A stretch of DNA of 64,000 nucleotides from Candidatus Moraniibacteriota bacterium (GTDB lineage Bacteria > Patescibacteriota > Minisyncoccia > Moranbacterales > GCA-2747515), in contig CALNYG010000005.1 of NCBI GenBank assembly GCA_942490825.1, positions 198,240 to 262,239 on the forward strand, given 5' to 3'. A program made the translations under genes and the position numbers. The notes beneath the pieces were generated by a model. The model made no database searches. It saw only the letters and a program-made list of their open reading frames with translations, and had not been told where the DNA came from. Each line of letters starts with the position of its first letter. Positions within the stretch are counted from its first letter, which is position 1. This document shows positions 15,590-59,316 of the stretch, piece by piece.

Positions 15590-15896
15590 GAAATAGATGA
15601 TTAGATTTGTAGAGACATTGCACTGCAATCTCTCTGAACGAGTGAAATTTTTTTAATATGTTTATGTTGGCAGATAGACTTTCAAAAAGTGCAACATGTT
15701 ATTGCGAGGGAAGTGGGGTAATCTTAGTAAGTTTTTTTGATATTTTATTTTTGAAGCTTTGTGAATTTTTGTGGGAGATTCTTCACTGCGTAAATTTTTT
15801 TACAAAAAATTGACTTCGTTCAGAATAACGGGAAACTTTCATAAAAAATTGAATCTTTAAAAAGCCCGTGCGGCGAGCACATTTATTTTTTTAATA

Positions 15897-16021: not shown

Positions 16022-16241
16022 CAAATGTTAGACTTTTAGAATGTAGACAGTTAGATAGTTATTAATTTTGAATTTTAAATTTCAATTGAATGTAATAATT
16101 CTAAAATTTTCAAAACTTGTAGAGACGTCGATTTATCGCGTCTCTAAATGATTATCGATTGCTGATGACTTTTTAAATTAAATCTAAATAACTTAAAGGT
16201 ATCAAAAAAACCGCTAGTAACATAGCGGTTTTTTTAAGGCT

Positions 16242-17560: not shown

Positions 17561-18562
17561 ATGAAAAAGGTTTTATTTTCAGGAATGATGTGTGCGGTAA
17601 TGATTGTTTTTTCGTTTGTGATTTCTCAGAAAGATGCTCAAGCTGGAGGTGGTTGGTCTGTTGAAAGTCGTTGCACTGTAGATGGTTGGCAGATGACTCA
17701 GTGTCCAAACCCAATTACAGATATTTTTTCAGATTGTTTTATTTTTTCTGGAGATGTTTTTAATCGAGGGGATCTAGTTTTAATTGTGGATACTATAAAT
17801 GGTGAGTGTCCTGTCTGCAGTAATAAAGTTATTGAAGAGTCAGAGGAGTGTGACGATGGAAATTTGCTAGATGACGACGGTTGTGATTCTGAATGTCAGT
17901 TGGAGCCTTTTTGTGGAGATGGTTATCTTGACGATAATGAAAAATGTGACGATGGAAATATAAATGACGGAGATGGATGTAATTCAACTTGTGAGATTGA
18001 AGAAGTCCTAGAAATTCCAGAAATTCCAGAAATTCCAGAAACTTTAGAAACTCTAGAAATTCCAGAAACTTTAGAAACTCTAGAAATTCCAGAAACTTCA
18101 GAAGATAATGATAAAAACAAGGACAAGGACAAAGACAAGGACAAGGACAAAGACAAGGACAAAAATAAAGAAGGCGACTTTCGAGTAAAAATCAAAACTT
18201 ATGATTGTAATGGAAATGAAGAAAGTAAAAAGATCCAAGGTTCAAAAGTAAAACTATATAAAAGTAGTGGAAAAAAAGCAGATGAAGATAAAACTAATTT
18301 TAAAGGAGAATCTAATTTTTACGATGTCAAAGAAGGGAAATACGAAGTAAAATGTGAAGTTCCTGGATACGTTAGTTTAAAAGATCGAAGTAAAGATTAT
18401 TACAAATCTGGATCAGAAAAAGTTAAAGATGGAAAAAGAGCTCATGAAACTTGTCATCTTATTAAGGCGAGTTGTGATGCAAATGTAAAAGTTGAAAAAT
18501 TAGCACAAACAGGTGGAAGCGTTAAAGATTTAATTCTAAGTATGTTTAATTTTATATTCTAA
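17561..18562 (+). CDS. Secreted Cys-rich-repeat surface protein with C-terminal LAQTG sortase signal
   Basis: Signal peptide MKKVLFSGMMCAVMIVFSFVISQKDAQA. Two CDDGN..DGC..C repeats of the Myxococcus cysteine-rich repeat type, then PEIPE/TLETLEIPE and DKDK tandem repeats. C-terminal LAQTG is followed by a hydrophobic tail. Track start 17549; the second ATG at 17561 is preferred. Confidence 0.7.
   Translation: MKKVLFSGMMCAVMIVFSFVISQKDAQAGGGWSVESRCTVDGWQMTQCPNPITDIFSDCFIFSGDVFNRGDLVLIVDTINGECPVCSNKVIEESEECDDGNLLDDDGCDSECQLEPFCGDGYLDDNEKCDDGNINDGDGCNSTCEIEEVLEIPEIPEIPETLETLEIPETLETLEIPETSEDNDKNKDKDKDKDKDKDKDKNKEGDFRVKIKTYDCNGNEESKKIQGSKVKLYKSSGKKADEDKTNFKGESNFYDVKEGKYEVKCEVPGYVSLKDRSKDYYKSGSEKVKDGKRAHETCHLIKASCDANVKVEKLAQTGGSVKDLILSMFNFIF
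18011..18165 (+). repeat. In-frame tandem repeats (GAAATTCCA / GAAACTTTAGAAACTCTAGAAATTCCA units, then AAGGACAAGGACAAAGAC units)
   Basis: Direct reading. They encode the EIPEIPEIPETLETLEIPETLETLEIPE and DKDKDK.. tracts. Confidence 0.9.
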
Positions 18563-19367: not shown

Positions 19368-19473
19368 GTTATTTTAGTTTTCTTGAAGTTTTTGTGTGGG
19401 GAATATTTCTGGGTTTGGGAATTTGTGGAAATAAAAAGCTATCATTAATTCGATAGTTTTTTGTTTTATGGGC

Positions 19474-19622
19474 TTGACAAGGTTTTTATTCTGTGCTATT
19501 ATTTGGTGTTACGGTATGAGATTGATTAATTTCTATTGGGATGGAAATATGGTTTTTTCTTAATTTTGCAAACTGTCAGATATTATTTAGAGCTTGACAA
19601 AATTAATAAGATATGCTATAAT
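19474..19622 (+). promoter_or_regulatory. Cassette 1 tandem promoters P1 (TTGACA-17-TATTAT) and P2 (TTGACA-17-TATAAT with TGC extended -10)
   Basis: P1 19474-19502; P2 19594-19622. A near-identical copy is at 20386-20534 and a diverged copy at 30939-31086 (-). Confidence 0.75.
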
Positions 19623-19815
19623 ATTTTTATACGATAAGAAATTAAATGTGATTTGTAATTGTAATGTTGTTCTTTGAGATATTTTCATTTTTTCTTCTAT
19701 TTTATTGATTTTTTTGTTCTATATTCAGAAAGTTAAGTTTTAGTTTTTTGAGTTATAGGACAGAAAACAATGATAAATGCAGTGAGATAATATCAATATA
19801 CTGCGGAGAGAAAAG

Positions 19816-20130: not shown

Positions 20131-20385
20131 GCCGTTTTTAACCTTGTCGTAGGGAACACAATACAAGGAAAGTTCTTTTTGAAAAAAAATAGTTATGGAG
20201 ACCTACGCCATGACTACTCACTTTTTTACTAATCTTAAAAAAATTAGTAAAAAAGTTAAACTTTAAGGTTGAATCAATGTCAATGTACGATTCAACCTTA
20301 GTAATTAAGCATTTCAAATTAAATTTTGGAATATTTATAATAATAAAAAACTATCATTTATTTGGTAGTTTTTTGTTTTATGGGC

Positions 20386-20534
20386 TTGACAAGGTTTTTA
20401 TTCTGTGCTATTATTTGGTGTTACGGTATGAGATTGATTAATTTCTATTGGGATGGAAATATGGTTTTTTGTTAATTTTGCAAACTGTCAGATATTATTT
20501 AGAGCTTGACAAAATTAATAAGATATGCTATAAT
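20386..20534 (+). promoter_or_regulatory. Cassette 2 tandem promoters P1 and P2
   Basis: P1 TTGACA 20386-20391 / TATTAT 20409-20414. P2 TTGACA 20506-20511 / TGC-TATAAT 20526-20534. Confidence 0.75.
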
Positions 20535-20723
20535 ATTTTTATACGATAAGAAATTAAATGTGATTTGTAATCGTAATATTGTTCTTTGAGATATTTTCAT
20601 TTTTTCTCTGGTTTATTGATTTTTTTGTTCTATATTCAGAAAGTTAAGCTTTAGTTTTTTGAATAATAGGACAGAAAAATAAACAATAAAAAGTGCGGTT
20701 GAAATACACTGCGGAGAGAAAAA

Positions 20724-21131: not shown

Positions 21132-21743
21132 CCCTACTTAACAGGAGGACGGAACTCAACGAAGTATCGTTCCTCCTCCTCACTTTCTTACTAATCCTAA
21201 AAAGATTGGTCAAAAAGTTGAGAATAAAAAACTATCATTTATTTGGTAGTTTTTTGTTTTGGTTGGGATTGTATTTATAGTTTTCTTAAAATTTCAAAGT
21301 GAAGATTTCGGATAAATTAATTTCTATCTATAAAACGCGATAAATCGACGTTTCTACAAAAAAATATATTTTCCGGAATGACAGGGATGAGAGATGATGA
21401 AAAGCCCGTGCGGCGAGCACTTTTTAAAATATTAGAAAAATTTATACTGTATTTGTAGTATCAGAAAAACTTACTGGGATTCTTCACTTCATAAATTTAT
21501 CTGCGATAAATTTATTACGTTCAGAATGACGTGGTGGGAGAAATTGACTTTTCTGCTTTAAAATGCGAAAATTAAAATAGTAATTTATTAATTAGAGAAA
21601 TTAGTTTTTTGGCTATGAAGATACATATGCGTTTCATTTAATTTTATTAGAAAATGTATATGTAGATTTATAGCGATTCGTTTAATTTAGAAACGCGATG
21701 AATCGCGTTTCTACAGAAATAAAAATTATTTTTCTTAACAAAT

Positions 21744-23948: not shown

Positions 23949-25401
23949 TGTCACTTACCAATGATAATGTCATACCAGGTTACCAATAGAAATGTCATAC
24001 CTATTAAAATTATGTTAGTTTTACATGTTAACATTTAAAAAACATGAAAAACTATGCAAGATACAATAATCATGACAAATAAGGAATCTCAAAGGTATGA
24101 AATCATAAATAATTTAATAAACAATAAGATAAACGGAACACAAGCATTCAGACAATTAAATTTATCAGTCAGACAAACTAAAAGGTTAAAAGCTAAAGTA
24201 AACAGAAAAGGAATACAAGGAATAATTCATAAAAGCAGGGGGAAAGAAAGTAATAGAAAATTAGATGAAAAATTAAAAAAGAAAATCATAAAAACAATCA
24301 AAGAAAACTATTCAGATTTTTCATCACAATTAACTTATGAAAAATTAAATGAAGTTCATGAAATTAAAATAAGTTACACTTCGACGAGAAGAATTAGAAT
24401 AAACGAAGGTTTAAGTACAGTCAAAAAAAGAAAACAAAATAAAAAATACTTCTCACAAAGAGAAAGAAAAGAACATTATGGAGAATTAGTTCAATTCGAT
24501 GGTTCATATCATGATTGGCTTGAAAATGAAGAAGAGCAATGCCTGTTACTTGCAGTAGACGATGCTACTAGCGAGATAACTCCAGAACTTGATAAAAATG
24601 AAGGTATACAAGCAGTATTTAATTTTTGGAAAGAATACGTACAAGAAAAAGGAAGACCATTAGCTATTTATCTAGATAAATTCAGTACTTACAAAGTAAA
24701 TCACAAAAATGCAACGGACAATCAAGAATTCAAGACACAATTTCAAAGAGCTATGAAAGAATTAGATATACAAGTAATTTTTGCTAATACGCCTCAAGCC
24801 AAGGGAAGAGTAGAAAGAATGAACGAAACTTTACAAGACAGAATGATCAAAGAAATGCGACTAGCTAAAATAAATAGTATCGAACAAGCCGATGAATTTA
24901 TTAAAGAAAAATTTACTCCAGAATTTAATAAAAAATTCAATGTTCCCGCAAAGAAAAAAGGAGACCTACACAGAAAACTAACTAAGCAAGAAAAAGATAA
25001 ATTAAATAATATTTTCTCAATTAAAAGCACTAGAAAAATAAGGAATGATTTTGTAGTTCAATATAAAAATAGATATTTTCAATTAAATGAAATACAACCA
25101 ACTACAGTTTACAAAAAGGATGAAGTAATTATAGAAGAACATTTAGATGATTCAATTCATATTTCTAAAAAAGATAAATATTTAAGTTTTAAAGAATTAC
25201 CACATAAACCCAAAAAAGAAAATGAACTAAAATTACCAGCTATCACTAAAAGAAAATCAGATTACACTCCACCAGCAGATCATCCTTGGAGAAGCTACCA
25301 ATTTAAAAAAGAAAAATTAAAAGCTCAAAAATTAATTAAATTCTAAAGGTATGACATTTCTAAAGAAAACAAAGGTATGACATTTCTATTGGTAGTTGAC
25401 A
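23949..25401 (+). mobile_element. Intact insertion sequence, ISNCY/IS1202-like (rve-type DDE transposase), 1453 bp
   Basis: Terminal IRs TGTCACTTACCAAT / TGTCAACTACCAAT (12/14). Subterminal repeats AATGTCATACC occur twice at each end. A perfect 15-bp direct repeat GTTTTTTTGATTGAC flanks it at 23934-23948 and 25402-25416. Confidence 0.85.
24054..25346 (+). CDS. DDE (rve/integrase-core) transposase with N-terminal HTH
   Basis: LVQFDGSYHDW (D), IYLDKFSTY (D), AKGRVERMNETLQDR (E). Confidence 0.85.
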   Translation: MQDTIIMTNKESQRYEIINNLINNKINGTQAFRQLNLSVRQTKRLKAKVNRKGIQGIIHKSRGKESNRKLDEKLKKKIIKTIKENYSDFSSQLTYEKLNEVHEIKISYTSTRRIRINEGLSTVKKRKQNKKYFSQRERKEHYGELVQFDGSYHDWLENEEEQCLLLAVDDATSEITPELDKNEGIQAVFNFWKEYVQEKGRPLAIYLDKFSTYKVNHKNATDNQEFKTQFQRAMKELDIQVIFANTPQAKGRVERMNETLQDRMIKEMRLAKINSIEQADEFIKEKFTPEFNKKFNVPAKKKGDLHRKLTKQEKDKLNNIFSIKSTRKIRNDFVVQYKNRYFQLNEIQPTTVYKKDEVIIEEHLDDSIHISKKDKYLSFKELPHKPKKENELKLPAITKRKSDYTPPADHPWRSYQFKKEKLKAQKLIKF

Positions 25402-25843: not shown

Positions 25844-26524
25844 ATGGAAAAAACTACACAACAATTAAAGAAAGAATATCCACCAAAAGTCTATAAAATA
25901 AAAGACAAAATAAATTTTGTTATAACTGCAATATTATTATTAGAAATAGTATTCGCACTTTTTCGAACTGAATGGATGGTATTATTTATCACAACAATAA
26001 CTCTAATCCTAACTCTGTCAGTTCAACTGGTTACCAAAAAAACCAGTAGTTTTATCTATATTCCCGAAGAACTTCAAATAGCAACTGTTCTTTTTATTTT
26101 CGCAACTTTATTTCTCGGAGAAATTCACGGATATTACGAATCATTTTGGTGGTGGGATTTAGTTTTACATGCAGGTTCGGCAATTGTTTTTGGATTTATT
26201 GGGTTTATAATTTTACTAGTTTTACAAAGAGGAGGGCGAGTCGAAGCAAAAGCATTTTGGTTGGCAATTTTTTCTTTTAGTTTTGCGATGGCAATTGGTG
26301 TTGTGTGGGAGATTTTTGAATTTACTGCTGATCAACTCTTTGATTTCAACATGCAAAAGTCAGGCTTAGTTGATACGATGTGGGATTTGATTGTTAATTC
26401 ATTGGGCGCTTTATTTGCGTCATTTTTTGGATTCTTATATTTAAAAGGAGAGGATAAGTTTTCTTTTGCTGTATTGATGAGCGAGTTTATTAAAAAGAAT
26501 CCACGATTTTTTCGAGATAGATGA
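25844..26524 (+). CDS. Hypothetical polytopic membrane protein
   Basis: About six TM helices; WWWDLVLHAGSA and WEIFEFTADQ motifs. Family not confidently recognised. Confidence 0.5.
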   Translation: MEKTTQQLKKEYPPKVYKIKDKINFVITAILLLEIVFALFRTEWMVLFITTITLILTLSVQLVTKKTSSFIYIPEELQIATVLFIFATLFLGEIHGYYESFWWWDLVLHAGSAIVFGFIGFIILLVLQRGGRVEAKAFWLAIFSFSFAMAIGVVWEIFEFTADQLFDFNMQKSGLVDTMWDLIVNSLGALFASFFGFLYLKGEDKFSFAVLMSEFIKKNPRFFRDR

Positions 26525-26596
26525 ATAGATCGGTAGACTTTTAGAATATAGACAGTTAGATTGTGTAGAGACATTGCACTGCAATGTCTTGGAAAT
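26521..26596 (+). repeat. 3'-end module: TAGA-rich tract plus GTAGA-flanked palindrome (GTAGAGACATTGCACTGCAATGTCT)
   Basis: Starts at the stop codon of the upstream gene. Related copies begin at about 12207, 15587, 16024, 31100, 39795, 53815, 56072, 57681, 59314 and 60299. Confidence 0.85.
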
Positions 26597-26722
26597 AGGC
26601 AAAAAATTTTCAATCTCCGATGGGACTCGAAGACATGTTTACGAATTTATAATTTTAAAGTTTTATGATTTTCTGTGGGGGATTCTTCACTTCATAAATT
26701 TATCTGTGATAAATTTATTACG

Positions 26723-26764
26723 CCTGTCTGCCCTGTCTGCCGACAGGCAGGCGACAAAGGCAGG
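26723..26764 (+). repeat. Self-nested mini-hairpin CCTGTCTGC[CCTGTCTGCCGACAGGCAGG]CGACAAAGGCAGG
   Basis: Single copies lie at 14648-14669, 29571-29595 (-) and about 60556-60580. It is inserted at other positions at 31261-31280 and 62367-62387. A larger relative is at about 8324-8374. Confidence 0.8.
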
Positions 26765-26925
26765 TTCAGAATGACATGATACTTATAGAGTTTCAAAAAA
26801 TGTTGAATGGTGAAAAGCCCGTGCGGCGAGCACTTTTTATCTTTCTGACTAATTTTATATTTTTTAAGAAAGAATATGCTATAATAATAATATTAAAAAA
26901 TATTCTTAAAAACTAAAATAAAAAT

Positions 26926-31086: not shown

Positions 31087-31542
31087 GCTTTGAAAATAGA
31101 CGTTTAGTATTTTAGATGGGTAGACTTTTAGACAATTAGATTTGTAGAGACATTGCACTGCAATGTTTTTGGGTAGATTGATAATTTTATGTAACGAAGA
31201 ATTTCAGTGAGTTTTTCTAATATTTAATTTTCAAGTTTTGTGATTCTCTGTGGGGGATTCCTGTCTGCCGACAGGCAGGCTTCACTGCGTAAATTTTTTT
31301 TATAAAAAATTTACTTCGTTCAGAATGACAGAAAATTTTTTAGGGGTTCGCAGTAGAAATGAATTGCAATTCATTTCTATAGATGTGTATCATAGCCCGT
31401 GCGGCGAGCACTTTATTAATTTTTAAAATTTTCATTTATCATACGGATAGGCACGAGACATTATTTTAAAATTTATTTTGAAAGTTTTGATTAAATGTTA
31501 TACTTTTAAAGTAACTATAATTTTTTCAATTTTAATAAAATC

Positions 31543-36314: not shown

Positions 36315-36482
36315 GTGGCTTAGTACATGATTTTTAATTACTTTTTACATTTATATTTAATTTGTTATAGTCTTTTAGTTTTTGTAGATACAAGATAATG
36401 TCTTGTTTTTGTAATGTTTAGGAGAAAATTATAATTTTAATTATGTTATAATGTCAGTAGTTTTAATACTTATTGAAAAATA

Positions 36483-37439
36483 ATGATTATATTTTTTTAC
36501 GGAGAAGAAGACTTTTTAGCTGAGCAGGAAGTTAAAAAATTAAAAGATAAATTTTTATTAAAAAATCCAACAGGTAGTGGATTACATGTTTTTGAATTTG
36601 AAGAAGAGATAAAACTTCAGGAGTTAACTGATAATTTTTCTGAGCAAAATTTATTTTCTGAAAATAAATTAATTATTGTAAAAGATTTTTTTGCTAATAC
36701 AAAAGCTGATGATCAAAATGATTTACTGGATGTTTTGAAAAAAACAGAATTAAGTGATATTTTGGTTTTTTCTGAAAAAATTCAGCCACGGAAAAATGGA
36801 CGTCTTTTCAAATGGCTAAATAAAAATGCAAAAATTTCTAAAGAATTTGCTAAATTGCAAGGCACGCAACTTTCAAATTGGATTAAGAAACAGCTTAATG
36901 AAATTGATAAAAATGTTTCTATTGAGAACAAGGCTTTGCAGGAAATTATTTTTTTGACAAGTGGGGATTTGTGGAAGATCGATATTGAGCTTAATAAGTT
37001 GGCGAATTATGTTGGTGATGGTGAAATAAGTTTGGAAGATGTTCATAAATTGACAGCGGTGAAAGTTGAGGCGGATATTTTTCAAACGATTGAATTGGTT
37101 TTTCGAAATGATAAAAAGAGGGCGATTCTTTTACTTAAACAACAGTTGGCGAAGGGTGACGATCCTTTCTATATTTTTTCGATGTATGTTTATCAGATTC
37201 GAGTTCTTCTTAAGATTGTTGGTTGTGTGGAACAACAAAATAATGCGAATGAATATTCTATTGCGAAAGAGGCAAAACTTCACCCTTTTGTGGTTAAGAA
37301 GTCTTTGATGTTGGTTAGAAATTTGTCGTCTAAAAAATTGTTAAAAGTGCATAAACTTTTGTTGAAATTGGATGGGGAAGTTAAATTGGGAAAAAGGAAG
37401 ATTGAAAGTGCTTTGGATAGTTTTGTGATGGGAGTTTAA
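36483..37439 (+). CDS. holA: DNA polymerase III subunit delta
   Basis: N-terminal IIFFYGEEDFLAEQEVKKLKDKF and LFSENKLIIVKDF pattern; size about 318 aa. Confidence 0.75.
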   Translation: MIIFFYGEEDFLAEQEVKKLKDKFLLKNPTGSGLHVFEFEEEIKLQELTDNFSEQNLFSENKLIIVKDFFANTKADDQNDLLDVLKKTELSDILVFSEKIQPRKNGRLFKWLNKNAKISKEFAKLQGTQLSNWIKKQLNEIDKNVSIENKALQEIIFLTSGDLWKIDIELNKLANYVGDGEISLEDVHKLTAVKVEADIFQTIELVFRNDKKRAILLLKQQLAKGDDPFYIFSMYVYQIRVLLKIVGCVEQQNNANEYSIAKEAKLHPFVVKKSLMLVRNLSSKKLLKVHKLLLKLDGEVKLGKRKIESALDSFVMGV

Positions 37440-37507
37440 TTTAATTTAAAATTTTGTCATTCTTGTAGATAACGCACATGTGCGTTCTCTACAGAGTAAT
37501 ATAAAAC

Positions 37508-37539
37508 AAAAAACTTCCGAGTTAATCGGAAGTTTTTTT
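37508..37539. terminator. Bidirectional intrinsic terminator between holA and rpsT
   Basis: AAAAAACTTCCGAGTTAATCGGAAGTTTTTTT. Confidence 0.8.
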
Positions 37540-37554
37540 GTAAAGTTTTTAGTT

Positions 37555-38843: not shown

Positions 38844-39806
38844 ATGAATAAACAAAACATTAAACAACCAGAAGGCGGATTGCTCCAGTCAAAAAATTGG
38901 GCAGATTTTTTACGTGCTGAAAAAAAAGAAGTTGTTGAAATTGGAGAAGAAGAAAAACTTTTTGGTGTGGCGAATAAATTGCCTGTAGCAGGAGAATATT
39001 TATACATTCCACGATTAACTTTCCAAAATAATTCAAATCCTGAAAAAACTTTGCGAGAAATTGAGAAAAAAGTTTTAGAAAAAAAATTTGGTTGGTTGCG
39101 AACGGATCTTTTGAATAAGAATGATTTGAAAAGAGTTAAAGAAAATTTAAATTATAAAGTTATCAAAGCACCACATGATATGCAGCCGAAGGATCATTTT
39201 ATTATTGATGTTTCTTTTTTGGGTGAAGAGGAATTGTTAAAAAACATGAAATCGAAAACTCGTTATAATATTAGATTGGCGGAGAAAAAAGGTGTAAAGA
39301 TTTTTGCTAGTCGAGATAAGAATCATTTGCGAGATTTTTTTAATTTAGTGAATAAAACAGCTAAAAGAAAAAATGTTAATTTTCATGATTTTAAACATTA
39401 TGAAAAAATGTTTGATGAATTACCTGAAGATTGTATTGAGCTTTATTTAGCGGAGTATGAGGGAAAAATTATTGTGGCAAATATTGCGACTTTTTATAAT
39501 GGTGTGGCGACTTATTTGCATGGCGGGATGGATGGGGAATATCGTAAATTGATGGCACCGTTTTTGTTGCAATGGAGAATGATTCGGGATGCGAAAGAAG
39601 AGGGTTGTGTGTGGTATGATTTTGGTGGTGTTTTTCCTGATTCTGATGACAGTGGAAAGAGTGGAATCACTAGATTTAAAATGAGTTTTTCTCCGAAGAT
39701 GGAAGTTTTTGAAACGATGGGGACTTATGATGTTGTTTTTTCTCCGGTTAAATATTGGATTTATAAGTTTTTGCAGAGAGTTAAGGGATTAATTGGTAGA
39801 TTGTAG
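38844..39806 (+). CDS. FemAB-family peptidoglycan interpeptide-bridge aminoacyltransferase
   Basis: KSKTRYNIRLAEKKGV, YLAEYEGKIIVANIATFYNGVATYLHGG, LLQWRMIRDAKEEGCVWYDFGGV. Confidence 0.8.
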   Translation: MNKQNIKQPEGGLLQSKNWADFLRAEKKEVVEIGEEEKLFGVANKLPVAGEYLYIPRLTFQNNSNPEKTLREIEKKVLEKKFGWLRTDLLNKNDLKRVKENLNYKVIKAPHDMQPKDHFIIDVSFLGEEELLKNMKSKTRYNIRLAEKKGVKIFASRDKNHLRDFFNLVNKTAKRKNVNFHDFKHYEKMFDELPEDCIELYLAEYEGKIIVANIATFYNGVATYLHGGMDGEYRKLMAPFLLQWRMIRDAKEEGCVWYDFGGVFPDSDDSGKSGITRFKMSFSPKMEVFETMGTYDVVFSPVKYWIYKFLQRVKGLIGRL

Positions 39807-39902
39807 ATACATTGCATTGCAATGTCTTAGGTTGGGTAAAAAATTTTCAATTTACGAATTTACAATTTTCAAACAATTTTTAATGATTTATTTAATAAAG
39901 AT

Positions 39903-42339: not shown

Positions 42340-43612
42340 AGCTAAGTATTGAAATTTGTTAAATTCTATGCTTAAATATTAAGTTATTTTAATAATTTAA
42401 TATTTTAAAAATGCAAAAAAAAGAGATTAAAAAAATATTCAATTTAGAAGGATATATTTTAGATAAATTTGAAGAAAAAAATGATAAAATAATTTTACAT
42501 TGTCATTTACAAAAAGAATTCATTTAAATTAATAAAAGAGCTAAGTCAAATAATTAATAATAACAGATATAGAATAATTGCTCATTCTATGTTTGAAAAT
42601 ATAATAGTTTTTATAGCTATGACTCAAAGAAGATTTTATTTTTCTAAACATAAAAAGAAACTTCGGGAATCTTTACCTCAAGTTAAAAAAGGGCAACAAA
42701 TGAGCACAGCTTTTAAAAAACTCTGTCATAGAATTAAGAGAAACCACATATAGCGGACTAGCTAGATCTAGACAGATAAGCATTATGTCGGCTCTGAGAA
42801 TGATTGATGAAATGGTAAATACTTCATTAATTTGAGATAAATCTATTCAAAGAATTGGAATGGATGGCAAAGGAGTTAGCAAAAGAAAACAAGTTTTTAA
42901 CATTACTAATTTAATTGATAATGAGGTGATAGGTGTTCTACCAAATTTATCACAAAAAGAATTGCTGAAAGAATTATTAAAAATTGATTTAAAATTTAGA
43001 TTAGCAGTTAAAGAAGTATGTATTGATATGGACTCTTTTTTTCCAGCTATTATTAAAGAATGTTTTCCTAATGCGGTTATTGTGATTGATCATTTTCATA
43101 TAATTCAGTGGGCTGTCTTTTTATTAAAAGAACAAAAGAAAGTTTTTCAAGACATCAACAATGAATCTTATAAAATAAATAAATTACTGATGATACCTAC
43201 ACACAAATTAACAATTGAAGAATTTAATAAATTAGAAAAAGTTTTTGTTAAAGTTCCTAAGTTAAAACAAAGTTGGAAAATAATTCATCAACTCAGAAAA
43301 GTATATTGGAAAAATAACAGAAAAGAAGCTCAAAAACAATTAAAATATGTCATCAGTCTTTGTAAAACTTCAGAATCAAAATATATGAAAGATTTGGCTA
43401 ATACATTAACAAGATGGTTTGATGAAATATTAAATTATTATTTATCTAAAACAACTAATGCTTATACTGAAGGAATTCATAATCATTTTGAAAGAATTAA
43501 AAGGAATCATTTTGGGATTAGAAATGTTGAACGTTTTTGTAAAAGATTATTATTTTGTGTTCTTCCGATGACAATTTTCTTAAATTTAGTTGCCCAAAGA
43601 TGTTAAAGAGCC
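42317..43612 (+). mobile_element. ISL3-family insertion sequence, copy A (decayed), 1296 bp
   Basis: 23-bp perfect terminal IR GGCTCTTTAACATCTTTGGGCAA. 8-bp target duplication GTAATTTA at 42309-42316 and 43613-43620. Confidence 0.9.
42412..43606 (+). pseudogene. ISL3 transposase pseudogene (copy A)
   Basis: The N-terminal part is broken by stops and frameshifts (MQKKEIKKIFNLEGY..QKEFI*). The C-terminal 248 aa are intact (42860-43606) with VIVIDHFHIIQ and TNAYTEGIHNHFERIKRNHFGIRNVERF motifs. Confidence 0.85.
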
Positions 43613-44579: not shown

Positions 44580-45871
44580 GGCTCTTTAACATCTTTGGGC
44601 AACTAAATTTAAGAAAATTGTCATCGGAAGAACACAAAATAATAATCTTTTACAAAAACGTTCAACATTTCTAATCCCAAAATGATTCCTTTTAATTCTT
44701 TCAAAATGATTATGAATTCCTTCAGTATAAGCATTAGTTGTTTTAGATAAATAATAATTTAATATTTCATCAAACCATCTTGTTAATGTATTAGCCAAAT
44801 CTTTCATATATTTTGATTCTGAAGTTTTACAAAGACTGATGACATATTTTAATTGTTTTTGAGCTTCTTTTCTGTTATTTTTCCAATATACTTTTCTGAG
44901 TTGATGAATTATTTTCCAACTTTGTTTTAACTTAGAACTTTAACAAAAACTTTTTCTAATTTATTAAATTCTTCAATTGTTAATTTGTGTGTAGGTATCA
45001 TCAGTAATTTATTTATTTTATAAGATTCATTGTTGATGTCTTGAAAAACTTTCTTTTGTTCTTTTAATAAAAAGACAGCCCACTGAATTATATGAAAATG
45101 ATCAATCACAATAACCGCATTAGGAAAACATTCTTTAATAATAGCTGGAAAAAAAGAGTCCATATCAATACATACTTCTTTAACTGCTAATCTAAATTTT
45201 AAATCAATTTTTAATAATTCTTTCAGCAATTCTTTTTGTGATAAATTTGGTAGAACACCTATCACCTCATTATCAATTAAATTAGTAATGTTAAAAACTT
45301 GTTTTCTTTTGCTAACTCCTTTGCCATCCATTCCAATTCTTTGAATAGATTTATCCCAAATTAATGAAGTATTTACCATTTCATCAATCATTCTCAGAGC
45401 CGACATAATGCTTATCTGTCTAGATCTAGCTAGTCCGCTATATGTGGTTTCTCTTAATTCTATGACAGAGTTTTTTTAAAAGCTGTGCTCATTTGTTGCC
45501 CTTTTTTAACTTGAGGTAAAGATTCTAAAGTTTCTTTTTATGTTTAGAAAATAAAATCTTCTTTGAGTAATAGCTATAAAAACTTTTTATTTTCAAACAT
45601 AGAATGAGCAATTATTCTATTTCTTTTTTGATTAATTTTTTTACTTACCTCATTTTTTAATTTAAATGAATTCTTTTGTAAATGACAATGTAAAATTATT
45701 TTATCATTTTTTTCTTCAAATTTATCTAAAATATATCCTTCTAAATTGAATATTTTTTTAATCTCTTTTTTTTGCATTTTTAAAATATTAAATTATTAAA
45801 ATAACTTAATATTTAAGCATAGAATTTAACAAATTTCAATACTTAGCTTTGCCCAAAGATGTTAAAGAGCC
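44580..45871 (-). mobile_element. ISL3-family insertion sequence, copy B (decayed, inverted relative to A), 1292 bp
   Basis: Same terminal IRs as copy A. Own 8-bp target duplication GTGAATTG at 44572-44579 and 45872-45879. Confidence 0.9.
44586..45777 (-). pseudogene. ISL3 transposase pseudogene (copy B)
   Basis: Split into three ORFs: 45777-45574, 45406-44927 and 44807-44586. Confidence 0.85.
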
Positions 45872-47613: not shown

Positions 47614-47808
47614 ATGTCATCTCGGAAAATATATTTTCTTTTCGAGTGTGGCGAGAAATTAGAAAATAATTTATCCGTGATCCAGAAATTTTAAAATCAT
47701 AATTAAATTTTGGAGTTTAGTTTTTTGCTGGTAGTTTCTGGATACCGGATAGACGAATTTAAATCAATCGCTACGCTCTTGAATAAATTCTGTCTTCCGG
47801 CATGACAT
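47614..47808 (+). mobile_element. ~195-bp MITE, copy 1 (termini ATGTCAT..ATGACAT)
   Basis: Aligns over its full length with 48803-48999 (+) and 62316-62530 (-). Imperfect terminal IRs ATGTCATCTCGGAA / ATGTCATGCCGGAA. Confidence 0.8.
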
Positions 47809-47942
47809 GTCTGGGAGTTGACTATGAATTATTGTAGGAATTCAAAATGCTGAATGGTGAAAAGCCCGTGCGGCGAGCACTATTTTTTTATTTAATTTTT
47901 TAAACATGTTATAATTTAACTGTAATTTAATAAAATAAAACT

Positions 47943-49941: not shown

Positions 49942-50393
49942 TTTACAATTTTCAATTTAAAATTTTCAAACAATGCTTAATTAAATAATGTTTTAAATTT
50001 AGAATGTATGCAGTATGATTTGCAGGAGAGAACTACACAATTTAGTAAGGATATGATTGCTTTAATTAAGAGTTTAAAAATTAATTTTTTGAATCGTAAT
50101 ATTTTGGATCAATTAATACGTTCGGCGACGAGTGTGGGCGCGAATTATTGTGAGGCAAATGGAGCGAGTTCAAAAAAAGATTTTCGTAATAAGATTCATA
50201 TTTGTAAAAAAGAAATTCAGGAAACTAAATATTGGCTTGAATTACTGGGTGAGGTGGTTGATGAAAAACAAAAGAATGATGTTAGAATTTCATGGAAAGA
50301 GGCACATGAATTAACATTAATTTTTAATAAGATATCAGGATCATTAAAGAATTAGAAATTGTTTGAAAATTTTAAATTGAAAATTGTAAATTA
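49939..50393. repeat. 36-bp perfect inverted repeat pair bracketing the four-helix-bundle gene
   Basis: TAATTTACAATTTTCAATTTAAAATTTTCAAACAAT at 49939-49974; its exact reverse complement at 50358-50393. Confidence 0.9.
50008..50355 (+). CDS. Four-helix-bundle protein (23S rRNA intervening-sequence protein family, TIGR02436-like)
   Basis: QLIRSATSVGANYCEANGASSKKDFRNKIHICKKEIQETKYWLELL. Confidence 0.85.
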   Translation: MQYDLQERTTQFSKDMIALIKSLKINFLNRNILDQLIRSATSVGANYCEANGASSKKDFRNKIHICKKEIQETKYWLELLGEVVDEKQKNDVRISWKEAHELTLIFNKISGSLKN

Positions 50394-50402
50394 TATTATA
50401 TT

Positions 50403-53793: not shown

Positions 53794-53925
53794 AAATAAA
53801 TTTTCAAATCTTCAAACATTTAGACTTTGTAGAGACATTACATGGTAATGTCTCTTGGTGAATAATAATTCTAAATTTTCAAATATTTTATTTTTGACAA
53901 GAAAATTACTAGTTATTAATTTTTC

Positions 53926-54671: not shown

Positions 54672-56069
54672 ATGAAAAAAATTATTTCAATTTTTTTAAT
54701 TTTTACCTTCATTGTCTTTTCAGGTTTTGGCTGTAAAGAAAAACCAATTCAGTATAGTACCAACTTAGAAATTTGGGGAATGTTTGATGATTCTCATGAG
54801 TATGCTAATATTTTTAAATCTTATAAAGAAACACATCCTTATGTAACAGGTATTAATTATCGTAAAATATCAGGTGAAGAAAATTATAAGAGAGAATTGT
54901 TAAATTATTTGGCAGAAGGACGAGGTCCAGATATTTTTATGATTCATAATACTTGGTTGCCAGAGTTTAAAAATAAAATAGCTCCAGTGCCATATGGTTT
55001 GATTAGCGAGATTGAGTTTAAAGACAATTTTGTTGATGTGGTAGCAGATGATTTTTATGTGGATGGAGATATTTATGGCGTACCGCTTTCTGTAGATTCT
55101 TTGGCTTTATATTATAATAAAGATATTTTTAATGCAGCGGGAATTATTGATCCGCCAAAAACTTGGGCAGAAATTGATGATATTACCCAGAGATTAACGT
55201 CTATAGATCAATATGGAAATATAGATCAAAGTGCGATTGCTTTAGGAACTTATGAAAATATTAATCGTTCAACAGATATTTTGTCTTTAATGATGATGCA
55301 GTTAGGATCAGAGATGTCGAATAGGGAAGCAGGGATGGCAACTTTCGATGAGCCAGTTTCTATCAATGGGGTAGTTCGCTCACCAGCTAAAGATGCTTTG
55401 GAGTATTATACAGCTTTTGCACAGGGTGATCAGCCAATTTATACTTGGAATGCGGATATGGATTATTCCATTGATGATTTTTATGAGGGGGATACAGCAA
55501 TGATGTTGAATTATGCTTATAATTATGATTTGATTGAAGCTAAAAATGCAAAATTAAATTTTGGTGTTTCGGAGGTTCCGCAATTTTCATTAAATCAAAT
55601 TGGTGGTCAGGTAAATTATGCAAATTATTGGGTTTTTGTGGTTGCTAAAAATAAAGAAGGACAAATCACTAAAGAAGGTTTGAATATTACAAAGGACATG
55701 CGAATTTCAGAGTCTTGGCAATTTTTAAAAGCTTTGACTTTTCCTACAGCGGAACAACCAATGACTTTTTATAATGTGGTAAATGATCAACCTTTTTCTT
55801 TGATCTTTGAAAATGATTTAAGTGAAATGTATTTAAATGTAAAGAATAAACCAGCAGCTCGAAAAGATTTGATCAAGATGCAACAAACTGATATTAAATT
55901 GCGACCATTTGTTTTGGGTAATTTGATTGCGCACAGTTGGTATCAAGTTGATTCTAAGGATGTTGAAAAGCATTTGGGTGAGATGATCGAGAGCGTGCAA
56001 TTAGGACGTTCATCAGTTAGCGATGCTATTGAGTTGGCAGCGAATCGGATAACACAGTTAATGAAGTAA
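54672..56069 (+). CDS. ABC transporter substrate-binding lipoprotein (family 1, sugar-type), orphan
   Basis: Lipobox SGFGC. LEIWGMFDD..YKRELLNYLAEGRGPDIFMIHNTWLPEF is typical of the SBP_bac_1 N-lobe. No permease or ATPase genes are adjacent. Confidence 0.65.
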   Translation: MKKIISIFLIFTFIVFSGFGCKEKPIQYSTNLEIWGMFDDSHEYANIFKSYKETHPYVTGINYRKISGEENYKRELLNYLAEGRGPDIFMIHNTWLPEFKNKIAPVPYGLISEIEFKDNFVDVVADDFYVDGDIYGVPLSVDSLALYYNKDIFNAAGIIDPPKTWAEIDDITQRLTSIDQYGNIDQSAIALGTYENINRSTDILSLMMMQLGSEMSNREAGMATFDEPVSINGVVRSPAKDALEYYTAFAQGDQPIYTWNADMDYSIDDFYEGDTAMMLNYAYNYDLIEAKNAKLNFGVSEVPQFSLNQIGGQVNYANYWVFVVAKNKEGQITKEGLNITKDMRISESWQFLKALTFPTAEQPMTFYNVVNDQPFSLIFENDLSEMYLNVKNKPAARKDLIKMQQTDIKLRPFVLGNLIAHSWYQVDSKDVEKHLGEMIESVQLGRSSVSDAIELAANRITQLMK

Positions 56070-56306
56070 ACAGGTAGATTTTTAGAGTAGTAGATAATTA
56101 GACCTGTAGAGACATTGCACTGTAATGTTTTGAGATGGGAGAATAATTTACAAATTTGCAATCTTCAAATAGTGTGACTTGCTATTTTAAAATGACAGTA
56201 GATTTTTTAGGATTTCAAAAAATGTTAAATGGTGGAAAGCTTATGCGACGAACACGTTTATTTTTATAAATTTAATTTTTTATTTTTAAATAAATCCTGC
56301 TAGTGA

Positions 56307-57404
56307 ATGATTGCTAGTTATGGATTACTGATTTTTATGCTCAAGAAAATATTATTTAGTTTAGTTGCGGGGTTTTTGATTTTTATTATTCAGGCACAGA
56401 GTGTTGATGCATCAGGGCTTGTTCCTTGTGGAGGTACCGGTGAGGACCCATGTACCTTTTGTCATCTGATTGTTGGAATAAAGGGTTTGATCGACATTAT
56501 AACAGGGACTTTATTGGTTGTGGCTGCTTTGTTTGTTATTACTGTGGCTGGGGTTATGTGGATAACTGGCGATAGTTTTGGTTTGATAAATCAGGCTAAA
56601 AGTGCAATTAAAAATGCTTTGGCGGGGATTGTGGTTGTGTTGACGGCTTGGTTGATGGTTATTGGGATTTTGAATTTATTGTCAGCTAAGGATTTTGTAA
56701 GTACAGAAACAGGTGATGTTATTTTGAGTAAAACAGGTGTATTTGGTTTTGAGTGTTCGACAAAGTCTTTTGTTGGGGGTGAGGTTGAGGGTTCTAGTGG
56801 TTCAAGCAGTAACCCAAGCAGTAACCCAAGCAGTAACCCAAGCAGTAACCCAAGCAGTAACCCAAGCAGTAACCCAAGTTCTTCTACAACGAGTGGATAT
56901 AAAACAGCGGAGGAAGAAAAAAAAGAAAAGGAGGTTAGGGATAGAGTGGAGGAACAAGGGATGGAAATTAATAAACCAGCTTGTAAATATTATGGACAAA
57001 CAGATTGTACAGATATGGGAGGATTGACAGAAAATTCTATTTCTGGATTAGAGAGATTTAATAGTGATTATCAAAAATGGGCAAAAGAAAATAATAAATC
57101 TACTAAAGTTACTGTGAATGGAGGATCAGAATCTAATAAAATACATCAAGGTAGTAGTAATCCCAATTCAGAATCTCATGCTAATGGACGAAAAGTTGAT
57201 ATAGATGATGGTAATTCTGATTTAAATGATTTTCTTTATGGAAATAAAAAAAAAGGAATTGATCCTTATCTTACTGATACTGGGAAAATTTGGACAAAAA
57301 GTAAAACAAAACTTTATAAGGATCCATATGGAAAAATTTGGGCTAAAGAGAGTAGTCATTCAGATGTGTGTCTTGATTGTCCAACAACAAATGCAAGATA
57401 TTAA
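56307..57404 (+). CDS. Pilin-like (TrbC/VirB2-type, CPR T4SS-pilin-like) N-terminal domain fused to a LAS/peptidase-M15-like C-terminal domain
   Basis: Signal peptide (probable start MLKKILF at 56337), then LVPCGG..DPCTFCHL and two TM helices as in the downstream pilin paralogs, then an (SSNP)x6 linker. The C-terminus has VTVNGGSES..SESHANGRKVDIDD (SxHxxGxxxD) and SSHSDV (HxD), resembling hedgehog/DD-peptidase-fold wall hydrolases. Confidence 0.55.
   Translation: MIASYGLLIFMLKKILFSLVAGFLIFIIQAQSVDASGLVPCGGTGEDPCTFCHLIVGIKGLIDIITGTLLVVAALFVITVAGVMWITGDSFGLINQAKSAIKNALAGIVVVLTAWLMVIGILNLLSAKDFVSTETGDVILSKTGVFGFECSTKSFVGGEVEGSSGSSSNPSSNPSSNPSSNPSSNPSSNPSSSTTSGYKTAEEEKKEKEVRDRVEEQGMEINKPACKYYGQTDCTDMGGLTENSISGLERFNSDYQKWAKENNKSTKVTVNGGSESNKIHQGSSNPNSESHANGRKVDIDDGNSDLNDFLYGNKKKGIDPYLTDTGKIWTKSKTKLYKDPYGKIWAKESSHSDVCLDCPTTNARY
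56805..56876 (+). repeat. Six perfect 12-nt tandem repeats AGCAGTAACCCA (SSNP linker)
   Basis: Direct reading. Confidence 0.95.
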
Positions 57405-57413
57405 AATAATTTT

Positions 57414-57683
57414 ATGTTAATAGAAATAGTACAAGCAGGGATAATTGATGATGCGCCGACCATTTATGAGTTGTTAGTTATAACGATACAAAAGGTATTA
57501 ACTTTTGTAAGTAGTGTAGCAATTTTGGGAGTTGTTGGTTCAGGGATAATTTATATGGTGTCCTCAGGAAATAGAGAACAACAAGAATATGCAAAAACTG
57601 TTTTGAAAGGAAGTGTGATTGGTTTGATTATTGCGTTAACTTCTTTAGTTTTAGTAGGTGCAATTACAGGGATTTTTGAATAG
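57414..57683 (+). CDS. Pilin-like two-TM protein (TrbC/VirB2-type)
   Basis: 89 aa; VAILGVVGSGIIYMVSSGNREQQEYAKTVLKGSVIGLIIALTSLVLVGAITGIF. Confidence 0.65.
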   Translation: MLIEIVQAGIIDDAPTIYELLVITIQKVLTFVSSVAILGVVGSGIIYMVSSGNREQQEYAKTVLKGSVIGLIIALTSLVLVGAITGIFE

Positions 57684-57953
57684 ATGGGGAGATCATTAGA
57701 TTTTTAGAGGAGTAGAATTTTTTAAATTAAATAAAGATTTAATTTTTGTGTAGAAAGAATTGATTGCTTATGGTAGAGTATTAGAAATACGAGGTAGGTG
57801 ATCTTTAATATGTTGATTCCGATGTATAATTTAGTTACTAGTTACAGATTATTGATTACTAGTTACTAACTTACTATTTACCAAAGTTTTAAAATATGAG
57901 ATAATAAAAAGGTAAAAAAGAAAAATAAAAATTATGAAAGGAGGTGTTTATAA

Positions 57954-59037: not shown

Positions 59038-59316
59038 ATGAATAATTTTGGAACAAAAAATTTAGGATTAGAAAAAGAGGTGATCGCTCAAGAAATTTTT
59101 TTGAAATTTGCGGCAGGGGCTTTGAGTTTTGTTTTTATTGGAGCGTTTTTGATGGGAGTGGTTGGAGCGGTGATCTGGGTAACTTCAGGAGGAAATGAGG
59201 ATAGAAATGATAGTTCTTCTATGATGATAAAGTCATCATTGGTTGGGATGATCGGATCGTTTATTGGTTACGTGGCATTGAGAATTTATGCAAATGTGAT
59301 TGGGGTAGATTTTTAG
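59038..59316 (+). CDS. Pilin-like two-TM protein (short form)
   Basis: FIGAFLMGVVGAVIWVTSGGNEDRNDSSSMMIKSSLVGMIGSFIGYVAL. Confidence 0.6.
   Translation: MNNFGTKNLGLEKEVIAQEIFLKFAAGALSFVFIGAFLMGVVGAVIWVTSGGNEDRNDSSSMMIKSSLVGMIGSFIGYVALRIYANVIGVDF

Follow-up and report, generated by a model that had tools for sequence, protein, structure and literature searches.

TAGA-Octamer Arrays and GTAG-Tagged Hairpins at Gene Ends in Candidatus Moranbacteria: A Possible REP-Like Intergenic Repeat

Introduction

What is the palindrome at positions 37464-37493, behind the holA gene in a 64,000-nucleotide stretch of a Candidatus Moraniibacteriota genome, and to what kind of family does it belong? We refer to the whole 64-kb stretch as the window and count positions from its first letter. 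A preliminary description of the window had listed hairpins with a common GTAGA..TCTAC frame and likened them to the repetitive extragenic palindromes (REPs) of proteobacteria, whose GTAG tetranucleotide is recognized by REP-associated tyrosine transposases (RAYTs). We find that the hairpins stand next to a feature that the REP interpretation leaves unexplained and that is the most unusual one here, a strand-specific array of TAGA octamers abutting stop codons. Modules made of such arrays and hairpins have been gained, lost and exchanged between close relatives. We give about an even chance to the reading that they are a lineage-specific, duplicative intergenic repeat, resembling REPs and bacterial interspersed mosaic elements (BIMEs), in which the hairpin serves as a gene-end structure in the sense transcript.

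Homologues of PolA, SBP and PNPase identify the host as a member of Candidatus Moranbacteria, within the candidate phyla radiation (CPR)/Patescibacteria, and the G+C content of the window is 31%. CPR/Patescibacteria genomes are small and compact, and the intergenic regions of the window consist of at least four short repeat families in ordered mosaics. We know of no described REP-like repeat system in these bacteria, nor of any described counterpart of the TAGA array. Whichever reading holds, the combined TAGA-octamer and GTAG-hairpin signature is a simple, searchable marker for the clade.

Sequences Examined

The window was compared with about 150 kb of relatives' loci, giving 216 kb in all. 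Syntenic loci came from GCA_030630955.1 (L002 and L125; PolA 89% identical), GCA_023133275.1 (L264; PNPase 96%), L004 (PolA 77%), L127 (SBP 77%), L128 (SBP 70%) and L266 (PNPase 81%; a 1.5-Mb genome). All the loci sampled belong to one syntenic, same-strand part of the chromosome.

Results and Discussion

TAGA recurs at a spacing of exactly 8 nt 38 times on the + strand of the window and not once on the - strand, and no other 4-mer has so high a count at this spacing, though TAGA is four times rarer than the runners-up. The preliminary description had reported extra TAGA copies in TAGA-rich tracts ahead of the hairpins; the copies are indeed there, and what that reading missed is that the tracts are exact, 8-nt-periodic, stranded arrays. 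Twelve of them, with two to seven units each, lie in the window, and where a hairpin follows, the final unit (TGTAGA) serves as its 5' foot. Over 61 units from the window and its relatives the consensus is T-A-G-A-Y-N-D-K, in which TAGA never changes and the spacers vary almost freely, with CT/TT enriched at positions 5-6 and C never found at positions 7 and 8. The same strandedness was seen in the relatives, where period-8 TAGA counts on the + and - strands, respectively, were 16 and 0 in L125, 14 and 0 in L264, 3 and 0 in L002, 2 and 0 in both L004 and L127, 1 and 0 in L128, and 0 and 1 in L266. The array and hairpin system is confined to a narrow clade of closest relatives and to the same strand. 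About 20 arrays have at least three units and all are on the + strand, although 46 of the 155 genes called in the window and relatives' loci are on the - strand; by hand calculation, (109/155)^20 is about 9e-4. The array-bearing strand is the G-rich (leading) one, which serves as the lagging-strand template, as judged from its positive GC skew.

The arrays are also anchored at gene ends. Nineteen tracts of the window and relatives follow a gene, and in about 16 of them one TAG of the tract serves as the stop codon of that gene, or the stop is at most 5 nt away. An array TAG is itself the stop of rlmH (12207), the 290-aa gene (15587), the FemAB-family gene (39804) and two pilin-like genes (57681 and 59314); at 26518 and 56067 the stop lies within the array or in register with it, and at 60304 the array begins 2 nt past the stop. 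Stop-linked arrays in relatives follow polA and holA (L002), pyk (L125) and a DHH-family gene (L127). A stop codon is not an absolute requirement, since the arrays at 14517 and 31097 are in divergent intergenic regions and that at 16029 lies directly past tRNA-Arg. Because 8 is 2 modulo 3, an array of at least three units places UAG in all three frames ahead of the hairpin. The arrays of the window, with the hairpins attached to them, are as follows.

12207-12250, + strand: six-unit tract; its first TAG is the stop of rlmH (11697-12209).
12245-12274, + strand: decayed family hairpin GAGATATTGT..TGTAATGTTTT, which pairs only with five G·U allowed.
14517-14544, + strand: four-unit tract without hairpin, divergent between tRNA-Ser (- strand) and gene 14717 (+ strand).
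15587-15637, + strand: TAG(G) stop, three TAGA units and hairpin TGTAGAGACATTGCAcTGCAATCTCTC, past the 290-aa gene (14717-15589).
16029-16055, + strand: four-unit tract, directly past tRNA-Arg.
26518-26593, + strand: seven-unit tract over the TGA stop of gene 25844-26524, then a family hairpin.
31097-31172, + strand: six-unit tract (one unit degenerate, TAGT) and family hairpin, divergent, upstream of polA.
39797-39831, + strand: two units, the second being both the TAG stop of the FemAB-family gene (38844-39806) and the 5' foot of TGTAGATACATTGCAtTGCAATGTCTT.
53821-53857, + strand: two units and hairpin GTAGAGACATTACatgGTAATGTCTCT, between pyk and tRNA-Ser.
56067-56134, + strand: TAA stop in register, five units and family hairpin, past the SBP gene (54672-56069).
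57681-57716, + strand: tract without hairpin, one unit degenerate (GAGA); its first TAG is the stop of the pilin-like gene 57414-57683.
59306-59357, + strand: seven-unit tract without family hairpin; its second TAG is the stop of gene 59038-59316.
60304-60372, + strand: six-unit tract and family hairpin, 2 nt past the TAA of the pilin gene (59513-60301).

Eight tract-adjacent hairpins (12245, 15608, 26564, 31143, 39802, 53828, 56105 and 60343) are copies of one repeat, TGTAGAGACATTGCA-c-TGCAATGTCTy, all on the + strand in the same orientation. The layout is TGTAG followed by AGACATTGCA-c-TGCAATGTCT, with GTAG at 0 nt from a 10-11 bp stem and a loop of 1-3 nt; the 3' arms do not have TCTA(C) and end in GTCTT, GTTTT or CTCTC, with U-rich G·U pairing. 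Copies can be aligned for 46-84 nt past the stem, and the hairpins at 15609, 26566, 31146 and 56107 are members of this one family, alignable beyond the hairpin itself, and not independent hairpins. We call the array, the hairpin and about 40 nt 3' of it module A, with the array as (TAGA-Y-N-D-K)n, n = 2-8, and a hairpin of 10-13 bp. It occurs with module B, a roughly 60-nt palindrome that at times has a nested CCTGTCTGCCGACAGGCAGG insertion, and with module C, GCCCGTGCGGCGAGCAC. The order is A-B-C, usually headed by A, and whole mosaics align over about 300 nt.

A second set of hairpins carries the frame on both sides, 3' TCTA(C) included. About seven full palindromes are of this kind (11701, 12509, 16120, 21686, 31354, 37464 and 59377), and the individual hairpins that we describe outside the tract-adjacent family are these.

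37464-37493, + strand: hairpin TGTAGATAACGCACA/TGTGCGTTCTCTACA, a GTAG..CTAC-framed palindrome past holA.
11701-11729, no strand assigned: perfect framed palindrome GTAGAAACAAGGCAaTGCCTTGTTTCTAC, -19.9 kcal/mol, between tRNA-Ser (- strand) and rlmH.
16120-16146, + strand: framed palindrome TAGAGACGTCGAT..ATCGCGTCTCTA.
21686-21715, + strand: framed hairpin TTTAGAAACGCGATgaATCGCGTTTCTACA in the pnp leader, about 30 nt before the pnp start.
31354-31379, no strand assigned: perfect framed palindrome TAGAAATGAATTG/CAATTCATTTCTA, in the mosaic upstream of polA, with module B on one side and module C on the other.
36383-36413, + strand: hairpin TGTAGATACAAGAtaatgTCTTGTTTTTGTA, paired in part by G·U, upstream of holA.

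The palindrome at 37464-37493 has two 15-nt arms, complementary except for a single T/C mismatch, and a folding energy of -16.7 kcal/mol (z = -5.7). It starts 25 nt past the stop of holA (36483-37439) and ends 14 nt before 37508-37539, a canonical bidirectional terminator shared with rpsT on the opposite strand. The same core occurs at two non-orthologous sites in L264, 21590 (GTAGTGAACGCACATGTGCGTTCACTAC) and 16400 (GTAGGAAACGCATATATGCGTTCCCTAC), where the palindromes follow TTTTGTGATTTTYTGTAG, the left flank that precedes module B, and it is not present at the orthologous holA 3' site in L002. Stand-alone GTAG..CTAC palindromes such as this one are of the same kind as the tract-adjacent hairpins. 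The hairpin at 21686-21715 may differ, in that its sequence is conserved at the orthologous site in L004 (about 1800-1832; PolA 77% identical), which suggests a pnp leader structure rather than a mobile copy.

All nine hairpins of the preliminary description were recovered, at most 2 nt from where it had put them. The frame that it proposed holds on the 5' side: among 27 hairpins with at least nine pairs, including at least two G-C pairs, TAGA stands at the 5' foot of ten, where 0.88 would be expected (P = 7e-9), and TAGA ranks first and GTAG second among the 4-mers enriched there. On the 3' side it is limited to the seven or so full palindromes, and a strict GTAGA-N14-34-TCTAC pattern has two matches in the window, against 0.36 expected.

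When the window was compared with Rfam 15, only four tRNAs passed the gathering thresholds, and nothing at E <= 1 fell on the tracts, hairpins or modules B and C except one sub-threshold Phe_leader match at 37438-37542 (E = 0.44; it scores 30.6 bits, and the gathering score is 55), which spans both 37464-37493 and 37508-37539. We regard this match over the hairpin and terminator as a chance one. A search of GTDB representative contigs, among which the host species is not included, for the family hairpin TAGAGACATTGCACTGCAAT gave one chance match, in a cyanobacterial metagenome-assembled genome.

The claim that the stems vary and yet remain self-complementary is borne out by the within-family alignment, in which the variation is compensatory. 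The stem series runs from GAGACATTGCA/TGCAATGTCTC in the window to GAAATGTTGCA/TGTAACGTTTT at L264 14839, GAAATGTAGCA/TGCTACGTTTT at L125 10809, GAA(G/A)CGTAGCA/TGCTACGTTTT at L002 12684 and L264 8278, and GAAACGTAGC-aca-GCTACGTTTC at L128 9177. An excess of compensatory change had been set as a test of the REP idea. In a 16-sequence alignment 93.8% of cells pair, against 36-49% with the partner columns slid, 6 of 11 stem pairs change on both sides, and the alignment has a covariation score of 0.411, a value that none of 500 shuffles reached (0.264 +/- 0.027), although these statistics are inflated, because the sequences were chosen as hairpins and are related, and the weight therefore falls on ortholog comparisons and within-family variants.

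The mismatches point to the strand on which the structure is maintained. By hand count over 14 of the 16 aligned copies, leaving out two fully framed hairpins (L128 9177 and L125 14770), there are 30 G·T pairs, no A·C pairs and four other mismatches. Mutation bias does not explain this asymmetry, since among the transitions in other same-strand repeats 28 would make a wobble and 36 an A·C pair. Wobbles are found at six or more distinct pair positions, and the minimal event count gives a probability of about 0.44^6 = 0.007. Tolerance of many G·T and no A·C pairs points to selection on the sense RNA, or on + strand single-stranded DNA (ssDNA). The hairpin is thus maintained on the + (sense) strand, which fits an RNA structure; it could also be an ssDNA hairpin that forms on the lagging-strand template and tolerates G·T. 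Di Nocera et al. argued for an RNA structure in GTAG REPs, whose frequent G·T pairs suggest an RNA function (PMC3733652).

Comparison of orthologous sites shows how quickly the modules turn over. At the 3' end of polA, L002 has an array and hairpin that neither the window nor L004 has; the C-terminus of PolA is GEL in all three, and the stop is TAG in L002 and TAA in the window and L004. Behind holA, L002 has a four-unit array where the window has the 37464 palindrome, and upstream of holA a roughly 100-nt insertion with the 36383 hairpin is present in the window and absent from L002. The SBP gene is followed by an array, hairpin and mosaic in both the window and L125, with different stems, and by 60-100 nt of plain spacer in L127 and L128. 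Orthologous arrays behind SBP and the pilin-like gene keep TAGA and the period and differ in spacers and unit number; the L125 ortholog of the array at 59306, for instance, has five units with other spacers. The sites in L264 and L004 that are orthologous to 15587-15637 carry other hairpin variants. At this 290-aa gene, 9 of 23 hairpin positions differ between the window and L264 with pairing kept, against a difference of about 7% in the adjacent coding sequence (a hand estimate over the last 208 nt). Each stem variant recurs at further loci, those of the window and of L264 included. Replacement by another member of the family is far likelier than stepwise compensation.

Could each hairpin nevertheless be an ordinary intrinsic terminator or 3' stabiliser that evolves where it stands, with the likeness of the copies due to convergence or occasional gene conversion? 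On this account the GTAGA(A/G)A..TYTCTAC frame would be local pairing of an A-tract with a U-tract, and the TAGA arrays would be slippage products. The hairpins do resemble terminators in being stem-loops just past a stop codon, in the pairing of a purine-rich GTAGAAA 5' flank with a UUUCUAC/GUUUU 3' flank, and in the conservation of pairing without that of sequence, and decay confined to G·U pairs agrees with a structure formed in RNA. Between pyk and tRNA-Ser, L127 carries a canonical terminator, AAAAGAACGTT..GACGTTCTTTTGG, at the place taken by framed hairpins in the window (GTAGAGACATTAC..GTAATGTCTCTTGG) and L128 (GTAGAAACGTAGC..GCTACGTTTCTACGG; counterpart at the 53821 locus, GTAGAAACGTAGCacaGCTACGTTTCTAC), and the 3' flank, TTGG.GAAT, is the same at the terminator as at the framed hairpins. 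In an intrinsic terminator a U-rich tract of about 7-9 nt directly follows a G+C-containing stem-loop. The L002 polA copy has seven U's at its end; copies in L125 and L264 have a weaker U-run (GUUUUGAA), and variants in L264 and L002 end in 4-7 U. Position at the gene end is conserved together with compensatory change at the 3' ends of pyk (ahead of tRNA-Ser), SBP and the 290-aa gene, in two or three genomes.

In other respects, however, terminators evolving in place account poorly for what is seen. The copies form a repeat family, near-identical with common flanks over 46-84 nt, and stem variants are swapped at orthologous sites next to coding sequence that differs by only about 7%. Framed palindromes also occur 5' of genes and inside mosaics, some hairpins are followed by a separate canonical terminator, and most window copies have no U-tract. 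The 46 reverse-strand genes end in canonical terminators, with no framed hairpin behind any of them. Finally, slippage would give identical units, yet TAGA is fixed and the spacers are nearly random. We consider it quite unlikely that the hairpins are no more than this. The preliminary description had named plain intrinsic terminators with no conserved frame as the finding that would count against it; the terminator part is partly borne out in function, at pyk-tRNA-Ser, and the frame is conserved all the same. A gene-end role, as terminator or 3' protector, is the simplest function for the hairpin, given the canonical terminator that stands in its place in L127 and the seven U's in L002. A literature search on CPR terminators found nothing.

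How far does the likeness to REPs go? A REP is defined as a basal stem of 7-20 nt that is paired throughout and closed by 2-5 nt of loop, with GTAG or GTGG 0-2 nt ahead of it on the 5' side (PMC6006769), and GTAG REPs are extragenic, high in copy number and mostly downstream of coding regions (PMC3733652). The tract-adjacent family has this structure, and the window has eight family copies, about eight framed palindromes and twelve tracts, all intergenic and most of them directly past + strand genes. Beyond the hairpin with GTAG at its 5' foot (stem of 6-13 bp) and the tens of mostly downstream intergenic copies, the likeness to GTAG REPs and BIMEs extends to sub-families with complementary stem changes, frequent G·T pairs, ordered mosaics and species-specific variants at the same sites. 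There are differences too. In the full palindromes here GTAG is paired with CTAC, unlike the unpaired tag of REPs; tandem copies of the tag, as many as eight, follow one another at 8-nt intervals from a stop codon; the host is a CPR bacterium of 31% G+C; and neither a RAYT gene nor head-to-head (HH) or tail-to-tail (TT) dimers were found here. No tandem arrays of the tag are described in the excerpts of PMC3733652 and PMC8266576. The REP analogy is structurally apt and mechanistically unproven. The REP logic of the preliminary description stands as to GTAG-tagged, multi-copy, intergenic hairpins with compensated stems and turnover; no Y1/HUH gene or inverted dimers to go with them were found.

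In its strict form the analogy would make these sequences non-autonomous ssDNA elements, moved by a single-copy RAYT encoded elsewhere in the genome with GTAG as guide, and the TAGA-YT units would be target or cleavage sites accumulated by repeated insertion and excision. GTAG at 0 nt 5' of variable, compensated stems of 10-13 bp agrees with this, as does the restriction of all copies to the lagging-strand template, to which the orientation of IS200/IS605-type transposition is tied (PMC6006769). RAYTs cleave at CT or CA near a REP, at a site selected by GTAG (PMC8266576), and the unit is rich in CT/TT at positions 5-6; sites with a tract alone, and the swapping of stem variants at orthologous sites, would fit excision and re-insertion. 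On the other hand, RAYTs cleave less well in vitro when the hairpin has G·T pairs or mismatches (PMC8266576), and many copies have one or the other; HH/TT dimers and the doublets known as REPINs, which dominate most GTAG families without being universal (PMC3733652), do not occur. No Y1 gene was found in the window or the relatives' loci: no Y1_Tnp domain appears in the 59 window open reading frames (Pfam) or in precomputed Pfam lists of the relatives' genes, and tblastn of the 216 kb with approximate IS200 TnpA and E. coli RAYT query sequences gave nothing below E = 4, which upholds the earlier statement that the window has no RAYT-like gene. This is a weak negative, because RAYTs are usually single-copy (PMC5581495), and the loci cover only a fraction of each genome. 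RAYTs in Patescibacteria are not mentioned in PMC6006769, and a literature search, not exhaustive, found no report of them. Given this balance, we think the strict version unlikely. We know of no REP family with tandem arrays of its tag.

The ends of IS200/IS605 elements are a related comparison. They too have a subterminal hairpin behind a tetranucleotide that acts as guide or target, and an orientation tied to the lagging-strand template (PMC6006769). Non-autonomous derivatives of those elements would have two different subterminal hairpins, at the left and right ends, with defined cleavage tetranucleotides and sharp boundaries against empty sites; here we found no TnpA or TnpB and a single, 5'-side type of hairpin. 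Gene-less derivatives of IS200/IS605 elements go by the term 'PATE', and tandem arrays of the target motif are, to our knowledge, not a feature of either.

We return, then, to the reading of the modules as a REP/BIME-like repeat of this lineage. Under it, modules would be copied to new sites rather than evolving in place, most plausibly by a process acting on ssDNA of the lagging-strand template with TAGA or GTAG as target or guide, and such a target would account for arrays so often opening with a TAG-A stop. If insertion took place on the 3' side of a TAGA target without duplication, in the manner of IS200/IS605, the TAG-A stop would stay intact and arrays would be clusters of targets, which would explain the seeding at stop codons, the tract-only sites and the variable spacers. 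The hairpin would be kept as a terminator or 3'-end protector of the sense transcript, as suggested by its G·U-only decay and by the canonical terminator that takes its position in a relative. With UAG in every frame, it may be that no ribosome translates into the hairpin. If the modules are mobilised by an HUH enzyme, long-term 'domesticated' mobile DNA of the REP-RAYT type would reach into episymbiotic bacteria whose genomes are about 1 Mb in size, and the tag arrays would be a readable record of insertion and excision.

Several observations weigh against this reading, in addition to the inflation of the pairing statistics. Comparisons of filled and empty sites showed no target-site duplications, sharp element ends, 3' boundary or right-end hairpin. 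No mobilising enzyme tied to the repeats, HUH/Y1 or other, was found in the 216 kb, the DDE transposases present (ISL3-type and rve-like) have no link to the hairpins, and no inverted REP dimers (HH/TT or REPINs) occur in the window, where no tract-adjacent copy has an inverted partner. As to the gene-end role, most window copies have no U-run (they continue with CUUGG or CUCUG) and none was called by a terminator consensus scan, and separate canonical terminators lie past the hairpins at 37464 and 16120. Four TAG-A stop codons have no tract, and a role in stopping ribosomes does not apply to two divergent tracts and the one behind a tRNA gene. Orientation linked to replication is only weakly separated from orientation linked to transcription, because the loci sampled are one syntenic, same-strand part of the chromosome.

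The regularity of the array invites a different explanation, that it is a platform for an oligomeric protein contacting one TAGA per 8 nt, on RNA or on DNA. The RNA version would be a TRAP/HutP-like protein that competes with the adjacent hairpin and tunes termination or mRNA decay; the DNA version would resemble the arrays bound by MetJ or the omega repressor. An exact period, an invariant 4-mer and free spacers, within and between orthologous arrays, are what such a platform would show, the strict strandedness fits a reading of RNA or ssDNA, and binding and folding would be mutually exclusive, since the hairpin takes its 5' arm from the last unit. HutP and TRAP targets are UAG or GAG triplets at fixed short spacing beside a terminator, with a period of 7 (HutP) or 5-6 (TRAP); like them, the units here contain UAG, are closely and evenly spaced on one strand, and lie 5' of and overlapping a hairpin, and unlike them they have a period of 8 and stand behind many unrelated genes rather than in one leader. 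Arrays of 2-8 units behind unrelated housekeeping genes do not make a regulon, and the clade is very narrow with quick gain and loss. We identified no candidate binding protein and saw no HutP or TRAP homologue, none having been sought. A dedicated protein platform is, in our judgment, very unlikely.

A broader proposal combines elements of the above: the 8-nt TAGA array might be gene-end punctuation maintained by selection, read on the sense strand (RNA or lagging-template ssDNA) and seeded at TAG-A stops, with an oligomeric or HUH-type candidate reader. We put this forward tentatively and think it, on balance, doubtful. Were it true, the array would couple the stop of translation, by UAG in all frames, to the formation or turnover of the GTAG hairpin. 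Functional arrays would amount to a compact device that sets a stop codon in every frame immediately before a 3' hairpin, and would offer a handle on the punctuation of transcription units in organisms that cannot yet be genetically manipulated.

Other known systems were considered and set aside. Integron attC sites would have outer boxes RYYYAAC..GTTRRRY, and the frames TAGAAAC..GTTTCTA have GTT followed by pyrimidines; moreover, the flanking genes (polA, pnp, pyk and holA) are housekeeping genes and not cassettes. Repeats of the CRISPR/Cas12a type (TCTAC..GTAGA) have the opposite order of arms, and the cores here are palindromic, without spacers. The met-box arrays of MetJ, a gammaproteobacterial repressor, are AGACGTCT tandems that read TAGACGTC, and TAGA units are not palindromic. 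Oriented octamers of the KOPS or Chi type occur singly and scattered, unlike these arrays at stop codons. For the ISL3 and rve-like transposases of the window, no link was found that would make the tracts their footprints.

Period-8 TAGA was also looked for in metagenome and viral contigs (TAGANNNK three times, then TAGA). Among the matches listed, most are 8-mer microsatellites, and a start at a stop codon is not enriched in variable-spacer tracts (6 of 31) over uniform ones (67 of 247); only L048 and L055 among them resemble the arrays of the window. In L048 (Ga0079224_100021277; 34% G+C, Bacteroidota-like genes) a nine-unit, variable-spacer array at 6164-6235 starts exactly on the TAG stop of a 592-aa TPR protein, with no hairpin after it, and L055 has a similar start at a stop codon. 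The L048 array hints that the phenomenon is perhaps not limited to the Moranbacteria clade. Metagenome contigs L074, L108, L124 and L055 and viral contigs L198 and L235, of 32-50% G+C, have TAGA-octamer arrays in inverted pairs, (TTAGAnGn)n ... (nCnTCTAA)n. Their centres are GTTTAGC(T/G)AAAC-like in L074, L198 and L235 and different in L055, L108 and L124, and the architecture is not that of the window.

Mosaics and Other Repeats

The locus at 60304 heads a roughly 350-nt A-B-C mosaic upstream of nusA. Module B (GGGGGATTCTTCAC..GTTCAGAATGACAGG) is found at 9733-9790, 14605-14690, 15775-15835, 21476-21535, 26679-26780, 31255-31330 and 60512-60600, and in reverse at 60405-60460. Several B copies contain a nested small palindrome, CCTGTCTGCCGACA(AA)GGCAGG, once duplicated, and its occurrence at two different positions within B suggests a separate, putatively mobile, tiny hairpin.

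Module C, the G+C-rich 17-mer GCCCGTGCGGCGAGCAC, has about 14 copies in the window and is conserved in L004, L125, L127 and L264. Forward copies (9831, 12544, 15864, 21404, 26817, 31395, 40359, 47864, 58490, 60616 and 63099) lie 7-120 nt upstream of promoters. Reverse copies (48533, 29516 and about 62252) read GCUCG-ccgca-CGGGC-UUUUU, are terminator-like and are directly past the LemA and NusA genes. As a + strand RNA hairpin the element was rejected, since it folds no better than shuffles and only its reverse complement is terminator-like. In viral contigs it had 15 matches, all chance ones within G+C-rich sequence coding for CPCGEH.

A repeat resembling a miniature inverted-repeat transposable element, with inverted ends ATGTCATTCCGG...CCGGCATGACAT, is present at 12400-12495 and 47730-47815 and at 8280-8450 in L125, and in relatives it adjoins TAGA tracts. 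Runs of AATTTTCAAA or AATTTACAA-like motifs, spaced by about 8-9 nt, follow hairpins or gene ends at 39835-39885, 49945-49990 and 50360-50400, and at about 6700 in L125; they may be the 3' part of module A.

Transposase genes and longer repeats complete the picture of the window. A 430-aa transposase (24054-25346) with weak HTH_32 and rve_3 matches lies past the pnp terminator, has the direct repeat TTTTTTTGATTGAC on its flanks and is missing from that site in L264. The window also has two fragments of ISL3-family transposases (42860-43606 and 44927-45406), in opposite orientation, with 32-nt palindromes nearby at 42374 and 45783. Direct repeats of 294 nt, 93% identical, occupy 19421-19714 and 20333-20626, and in each a pair of consensus sigma-70 promoters (TTGACA-17-TATAAT and TTGACA-17-TATTAT, both TG-extended) precedes small open reading frames. 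There are also two in-frame tandem repeats, one with a 9-nt unit (CCAGAAATT and variants) at 17977-18112, in a DUF4215/SdrD-like surface protein, and one with a 12-nt unit (CAAGCAGTAACC) at 56791-56898, in a pilin-like protein.

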